From a virus (taxonomy: Duplodnaviria; Heunggongvirae; Uroviricota; Caudoviricetes), in the IMG/VR virus record IMGVR_UViG_2660238499_000005: a stretch of DNA of 5,821 nt. One strand, written 5' to 3'. The notes under the pieces were generated by a model that was not told where the DNA came from, did not search any database, and was given only the letters and a program-made list of their open reading frames with translations. A program made the position numbers and the translations under genes. This document shows positions 3,239 to 3,719 of the stretch, piece by piece (within the stretch, counting starts at the first letter, position 1; each line of letters starts with the position of its first letter).

Positions 3239-3430
3239 ATGCACAAAGCATCTCCTGTTGAGTTAAGAACGAGTATTGAGATGGCACATAGCCTTGCTCA
3301 AATTGGAGTCAGGTTTGTGCCAATACCAGTAGAAACAGACGAAGAATTTCATACGTTAGCCACATCCCTTTCACAAAAGCTGGAAATGATGGTGGCGAAA
3401 GCAGAAGCAGATGAGAGAGACCAGGTATGA
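3239..3430 (+). CDS. Hypothetical prophage protein (63 aa)
   Basis: SD GGGAGG (3229-3234) 4 nt before the ATG. Product MHKASPVELRTSIEMAHSLAQIGVRFVPIPVETDEEFHTLATSLSQKLEMMVAKAEADERDQV. Lies immediately upstream of the integrase fragment, where xis or early accessory genes sit in lambdoid phages, but has no recognisable excisionase motif. Confidence 0.5.
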   Translation: MHKASPVELRTSIEMAHSLAQIGVRFVPIPVETDEEFHTLATSLSQKLEMMVAKAEADERDQV

Positions 3431-3440
3431 CAACCACTGA

Positions 3441-3719
3441 ATGCATTTTTCTGGCAGCGGGCTTCATATTCTGTGTGCTTATGCTTTCCGTTTCCATGAC
3501 CTCAGACACACCTGGGCAAGCTGGCTGATTCAGTCAGGCGTCCCATTATCAGTGCTTCAGGAAATGGGCGGATGGGAGTCCATAGAAATGGTTCGTAGGT
3601 ATGCTCACCTTGCGCCTAATCATTTGACAGAGCATGCGAGGAAAATAGACGACATTTTTGGTGATAATGTCCCAAATATGTCCCACTCTGGAATTATGGA
3701 GGATATAAAGAAGGCGTAA
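3441..3719 (+). pseudogene. Tyrosine recombinase (phage integrase) C-terminal fragment; N-terminal and core domains absent
   Basis: Encodes only the catalytic tail ...[51 protein letters not shown]... (H-x-x-R box and catalytic Tyr in RRYAHL). Intact integrases of this type are several-fold longer than this fragment. Nothing integrase-like is encoded upstream in any frame. The 3' end lies 15 bp from the 3' end of the tRNA. Confidence 0.8.

Follow-up and report, generated by a model that had tools for sequence, protein, structure and literature searches.

DLP12 is the most prevalent cryptic prophage of Escherichia coli, and its attachment site at argU has been reported as 47 bp (PMC6379469). 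In E. coli K-12 this prophage, the integrase gene of which is intD, occupies argU (Lindsey et al. 1989, cited in PMC6379469). The window analyzed here, a stretch of 5,821 nucleotides, is a segment of the E. coli chromosome in which lambdoid prophage genes lie to the left of argU, and argU is followed by fimZ (3991–4686) and the fimbrial genes sfmF and sfmH. Over positions 1–4728 it is 99.98% identical to the chromosome of strain EC2641 (NZ_JALDNN010000001.1). With K-12 DLP12 the element shares its site (the 3' end of argU), the 47-bp att core and its orientation, and the neighborhood is the same, with fimZ/sfm on one side and ompT/envY at the far end; in the loci which we examined int terminates 15 bp from the 3' end of the tRNA. 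The differences are ones of content. K-12 possesses a full-length intD of 387 codons, whereas here codons 311–387 alone are present and the xis-like gene is gone. The element measures approximately 8.5 kb in EC2641 versus approximately 20.5 kb for DLP12 of K-12 (PMC6379469), and compared with the latter it has kept a CI-like repressor, kil and a fragment of gam and has lost the Q, lysis and tail regions. We consider it very probable that the integrase sequence beside argU is a nonfunctional 3' remnant of intD, derived from a DLP12-type cryptic lambdoid prophage and produced by a single illegitimate deletion of 2008 bp.

The first-pass annotation of this DNA had proposed that only the tail of a tyrosine recombinase, from the HDLRH box to the catalytic tyrosine, survives next to the tRNA, and homology searches bear this out. 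Full-length IntD (387 aa, WP_000051902.1) from the related locus of strain OkiPb01695 (L005) was used as the query for a deliberately permissive tblastn search (word size 2, E up to 100). Residues 311–387 were matched at window positions 3486–3716, with 77 of 77 amino acids identical [7e-49], so that the remnant, including its stop codon, occupies 3486–3719 on the plus strand. Of residues 1–310 no trace was seen in any of the six reading frames, every remaining match having an E value of at least 0.02. Reconstruction of a full-length integrase by frameshift correction, the finding which would have overturned the proposal, can thus be dismissed. Pfam gave the same picture, the PF00589 match [5e-17] covering residues 14–60 of a 92-aa ORF (3441–3719) and only positions 125–171 of the 172-position profile, against positions 1–171 for full-length IntD. 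In EC2641 the PGAP annotation of window 3486–3719 reads [quoted passage not shown] The stop codon at 3719 is followed by a gap of 15 bp and then by the 3' end of argU at 3735, an arrangement identical to that of intD in L005. Since the intD region of K-12 MG1655 is 99.7% identical in nucleotides to the OkiPb01695 reference gene, the fragment is an allele of intD and the element a DLP12-type remnant.

The catalytic residues of IntD were placed by alignment to the HP1 integrase (1AIH) and to XerC/XerD-like structures, followed by residue counting. Those retained are H314 (3495–3497) and R317 (3504–3506) of the HxxR box, W340 (3573–3575) at the His/Trp position, and the nucleophile Y349 (3600–3602); the remnant aligns to the corresponding regions of HP1 integrase, the XerC-like protein 4A8E and XerD (1A0P). 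In these three structures the catalytic domain is complete and includes Arg I and the β-hairpin lysine, while the remnant lacks both, R215 and K242 lying within the deleted part, and it lacks the N-terminal arm-binding and the core-binding domains as well, these belonging to the missing residues 1–310. Deprived of Arg215 and Lys242, of the remaining catalytic fold and of both DNA-binding domains, the surviving Int 311–387 should be incapable of recombining DNA. The Arg317 codon is AGA, and that of Arg348, adjoining the tyrosine nucleophile, is AGG (3597–3599). AGA and AGG are rare arginine codons read by argU, the very tRNA gene at which this prophage is integrated.

The breakpoint was mapped base by base against L005, which contains the same prophage with an intact intD beside argU. 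The left flank is collinear with L005 up to position 7644 (window 3486) and the right flank from position 9651 onward (window 3485), the two matches (99.7% and 99.0% identity) overlapping by 2 bp, a TT microhomology at 3485–3486. Between them 2008 bp are missing (approximately 7645–9652 of L005), a size which holds relative to this locus as a proxy for the true ancestor of the lineage. The sequence lost comprises genes for a 71-aa hypothetical protein, a TraR/DksA zinc-finger protein, a DUF4222 protein and an HTH_17 protein, together with int codons 1–310. PGAP labels the HTH_17 gene of L005 as an incomplete helix-turn-helix gene; we take it to be a P22-type xis-like gene. A single illegitimate deletion joined at 2 bp of TT would thus have removed codons 1–310 of int, the xis-like gene and three small genes in one event. 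The deletion or recombination endpoint which the first-pass annotation had placed within int does lie there, and its estimate of about 3480 was accurate. Its start of the feature at 3430 was not, the integrase-derived DNA beginning only at 3485/3487.

Positions 3427–3485 instead contain a short hydrophobic ORF together with the leader of the 71-aa gene lost in the deletion. A DUF1382 gene resembling lambda orf63 (3239–3430, plus strand; PF07131, 8e-31; phrog_292) is the final prophage gene to remain intact ahead of the junction. Its stop codon overlaps, within ATGA, the start of the hydrophobic ORF (3427–3528, plus strand), which is unannotated and matches no family in Pfam or PHROG. In the intact prophage this ORF specifies 27 aa and here 33 aa, its C-terminus having been replaced through the int deletion. 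The 92-aa ORF, also on the plus strand, is chimeric as judged from the ORF list, reading of the sequence and PHROG: codons 1–15 come from the leader frame of the missing 71-aa gene, the remainder being Int 311–387, and residues 1–18 of the product match an unrelated PHROG family. We could recognize no Shine-Dalgarno sequence ahead of its ATG (3441), and this ORF is for that reason probably not expressed.

The target gene argU (tRNA-Arg, anticodon UCU), the gene at which DLP12 integrates, lies at 3735–3811 on the minus strand; it was identified by ARAGORN, by Rfam (tRNA, 72 bits) and by PGAP in all of the related loci. A consensus scan revealed a sigma-70 promoter-like site upstream of it (TTGACT-16-TATAAT, 11 of 12 matches; 3843–3870, minus strand). 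The 47-bp att core copy proximal to argU (3733–3779) comprises the 3' portion of argU and 2 further nucleotides. It was delimited by blastn (47/47), by direct reading and by comparison with strain Ec1120, in which the argU site is empty (envY-argU-fimZ; L006 6974–7339), no int DNA follows argU, and the flanks overlap by exactly these 47 bp. The window contains a single copy of the core, in agreement with the earlier statement that no second tRNA 3'-end repeat occurs in it. The other prophage boundary had been predicted to lie outside the window, and a search of the flanking genome sequence located it in EC2641: blastn found a perfect 47/47 direct repeat (L001 4277–4323) between envY and an ompT fragment, approximately 4.8 kb past the left end of the window.

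The approximately 8.5-kb remnant element of EC2641 is thus bracketed by 47-bp att repeats and has lost its own integrase and excisionase. Since neither Arg215 nor Lys242 survives, and since the two DNA-binding domains and the xis-like gene are missing as well, we can soundly infer that the element would be unable to excise itself. The two att cores are themselves undamaged, so that the element could still be removed by an IntD-type integrase acting in trans or by rare homologous recombination between the 47-bp copies.

To judge from public genomes, the particular junction is rare and the type of lesion is not. An 80-bp probe across the int junction was contiguous in just one of 5,426 complete E. 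coli genomes, that of EC2641, and gave no match among GTDB species-representative genomes. By megablast, 2,942 of the same 5,426 genomes contain some match to this intD; at least 80% of the gene is present in 1,647 and a partial copy in approximately 1,295. The partial copies adjoin argU, and among the matches listed they start at query nt 151, 421, 571/573, 637, 833, 882 and 1097; tblastn added truncations starting at aa 254, 287 and 316. The start at nt 571–573 predominates among the matches listed at 90–95% identity, a band which holds 1,030 genomes. In ATCC 25922, the one member of this class which we inspected, int lacks its N-terminal part, contains a frameshift and is fused to a tail-fiber assembly fragment. 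Truncation of intD next to argU is a common finding: apart from the present breakpoint there are about ten others, and one large class, to which ATCC 25922 belongs.

Strains ATCC 25922, CFSAN061772, 165, TUM12355 and DAM all resemble the present case in having an N-terminally truncated integrase, annotated by PGAP as incomplete, which abuts argU in a degraded DLP12-like element. They differ from it in their breakpoints (aa 254, 287 and 316; nt 1097; and, in a frameshifted copy, about nt 571) and in the partners to which int is joined (bet, a tail-fiber assembly gene and IS1). The aa 310/311 breakpoint is specific to the EC2641 lineage, and the junction at 3485–3486 could serve as a lineage-specific marker in strain typing. 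Beyond annotation its significance is slight: the remnant is a case of ordinary, indeed textbook, prophage decay at a tRNA integration site, of a kind already known and already annotated in the public genome of EC2641. Taken together, the many independent truncations of intD show prophages being eroded by deletions which halt short of the tRNA gene.

Lambdoid prophages are mosaic, and one might ask whether the junction at 3485–3486 arose through recombination between two of them, or was imported by horizontal transfer of a segment in which the deletion had already taken place. Two further lineage-specific junctions, at 447 and 3112, occur in the window, and identity to L005 varies slightly from segment to segment (99.9%, 99.7% and 99.0%), as might be expected of such a history. 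Yet one and the same reference prophage contains both flanks of the int junction, separated by 2 kb and unchanged in order and orientation, and a joint sharing merely 2 bp is the signature of illegitimate deletion rather than of homologous exchange. That identity is lower in the right-hand segment is explained by the chromosomal fimZ/sfm portion which this segment includes. An origin by exchange or import is thus very unlikely. We attach next to no weight to the suggestion that the junction is an assembly artifact, or that a full-length gene is broken only by frameshifts or sequencing errors. The window does resemble a short-read contig, with IS1 at both ends, but the identical junction is present (100% over 951 bp) in the complete chromosome of EC2641, which was assembled independently and diverges from the window downstream of fimZ, and IntD residues 1–310 are undetectable in any frame.

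That C-terminal remnants of int recur next to argU in a great many genomes, with differing breakpoints, could also be taken to mean that the 3' end of int is retained to serve argU, as a terminator or as a context for 3' processing; and as the 92-aa ORF is open from its ATG it might specify a mini-protein with a function of its own, such as a dominant-negative recombinase tail. Both ideas strike us as highly improbable. No terminator-like site was detected downstream of argU, and the 141-nt 3' trailer of argU folds no better than shuffled sequence (z = -0.25), on which grounds we rejected a terminator or structured trailer within the int remnant. Strain DAM retains merely some 68 nt of int, beside IS1, Ec1120 manages with none, and approximately 46% of the genomes lack a megablast match to this intD altogether. 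As to a mini-protein, the absence of a visible ribosome-binding site ahead of 3441 argues against it. The simpler reading of the recurrent tails is that deletions in the prophage are tolerated only when they end before argU, those entering the tRNA gene being counter-selected. A 3' remnant of intD left by one 2008-bp illegitimate deletion remains our preferred explanation of the locus, and none of the observations made here conflicts with it.

The first-pass annotation had also viewed the supposed immobility of the element as consistent with domestication of the adjacent immunity cassette. This cassette begins with an intact CI-like repressor (565–1293, plus strand) in which Pfam recognizes a helix-turn-helix and an S24 peptidase, and which belongs to phrog_4; the same accession, WP_001295669.1, is annotated in both EC2641 and OkiPb01695. 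Downstream are two intact genes (1376–1639 and 1652–2095) which fall into PHROG families of unknown function (phrog_4231 and phrog_3556). The product of the second contains a coiled-coil segment and a C-terminal hydrophobic tail. The region downstream of the CI-like repressor is a frequent position for exclusion genes in lambdoid phages. PADLOC returned marginal matches only for the cassette genes (E values of at least 2e-4). If the host had indeed kept the repressor and the phrog_4231/phrog_3556 genes for superinfection immunity or exclusion, the loss of int and xis would have locked the cassette in place, and the truncated integrase would mark a step in domestication and not neutral decay. 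We find no support for this and think it unlikely. The prophage DNA is 99.7–99.9% identical to the intact copy in OkiPb01695, and the 2.7-kb block 447–3113 is 99.9% identical to it; the deletions thus look recent, and the intactness of the repressor is uninformative with respect to selection. Insertion sequences and further deletions abound in the rest of the element, which is what neutral decay would lead one to expect.

Further prophage genes to the right of the cassette are a kil-like gene (2645–2851), assigned to the lambdoid prophages through Pfam and PHROG, and a truncated gam (2927–3113), the Pfam match of which covers positions 1–73 of 98. The truncation of gam coincides with a second deletion junction (3112–3113), at which comparison with L005 indicates a 2-bp TA microhomology and the loss of 1604 bp. 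This deletion joins gam at about codon 62 to DNA at the start of a DUF1317 gene, and the sequence removed comprised the 3' end of gam, bet and exo and perhaps the opening bases of DUF1317 as well. Both this joint and that at 3485–3486 look like ordinary illegitimate deletions, the one in gam being independent of the one in int.

At the left of the window lie an invertase-like helix-turn-helix fragment (59–157) and a tail-fiber assembly fragment (255–446). At 447 the latter meets the 5' end of a cro-like gene and the operator region of the repressor. The junction, probed as 380–520, is contiguous only in EC2641, other genomes matching to about 468 at 91%, a hint that the joint may contain a short shared stretch. 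A full-length Rfam match to IS009 (RF02111, 177.7 bits) on the minus strand at 289–489 spans the breakpoint.

The termini of the window, 1–57 and 5766–5821, are the two ends of IS1, which makes it probable that the window is a contig of a draft assembly that broke off at copies of IS1. On the left the insertion sequence interrupts the invertase-like helix-turn-helix gene, and on the right it interrupts sfmH. Beyond the IS1 at the left end, the element in EC2641 continues with copies of IS903B and IS3 and with fragments of ompT and methyltransferase genes. In EC2641 the same IS1 end is joined instead to window position 4728, as if an IS1-mediated adjacent deletion had removed sfmF/sfmH there. 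Strain Ec1120 was rejected as a near clone of the window on account of its empty argU site and the 22 mismatches which separate the two over 2,089 bp. It nonetheless carries IS1 at exactly the insertion point in sfmH seen in the window, reflecting either a hotspot for IS1 or an old shared insertion.
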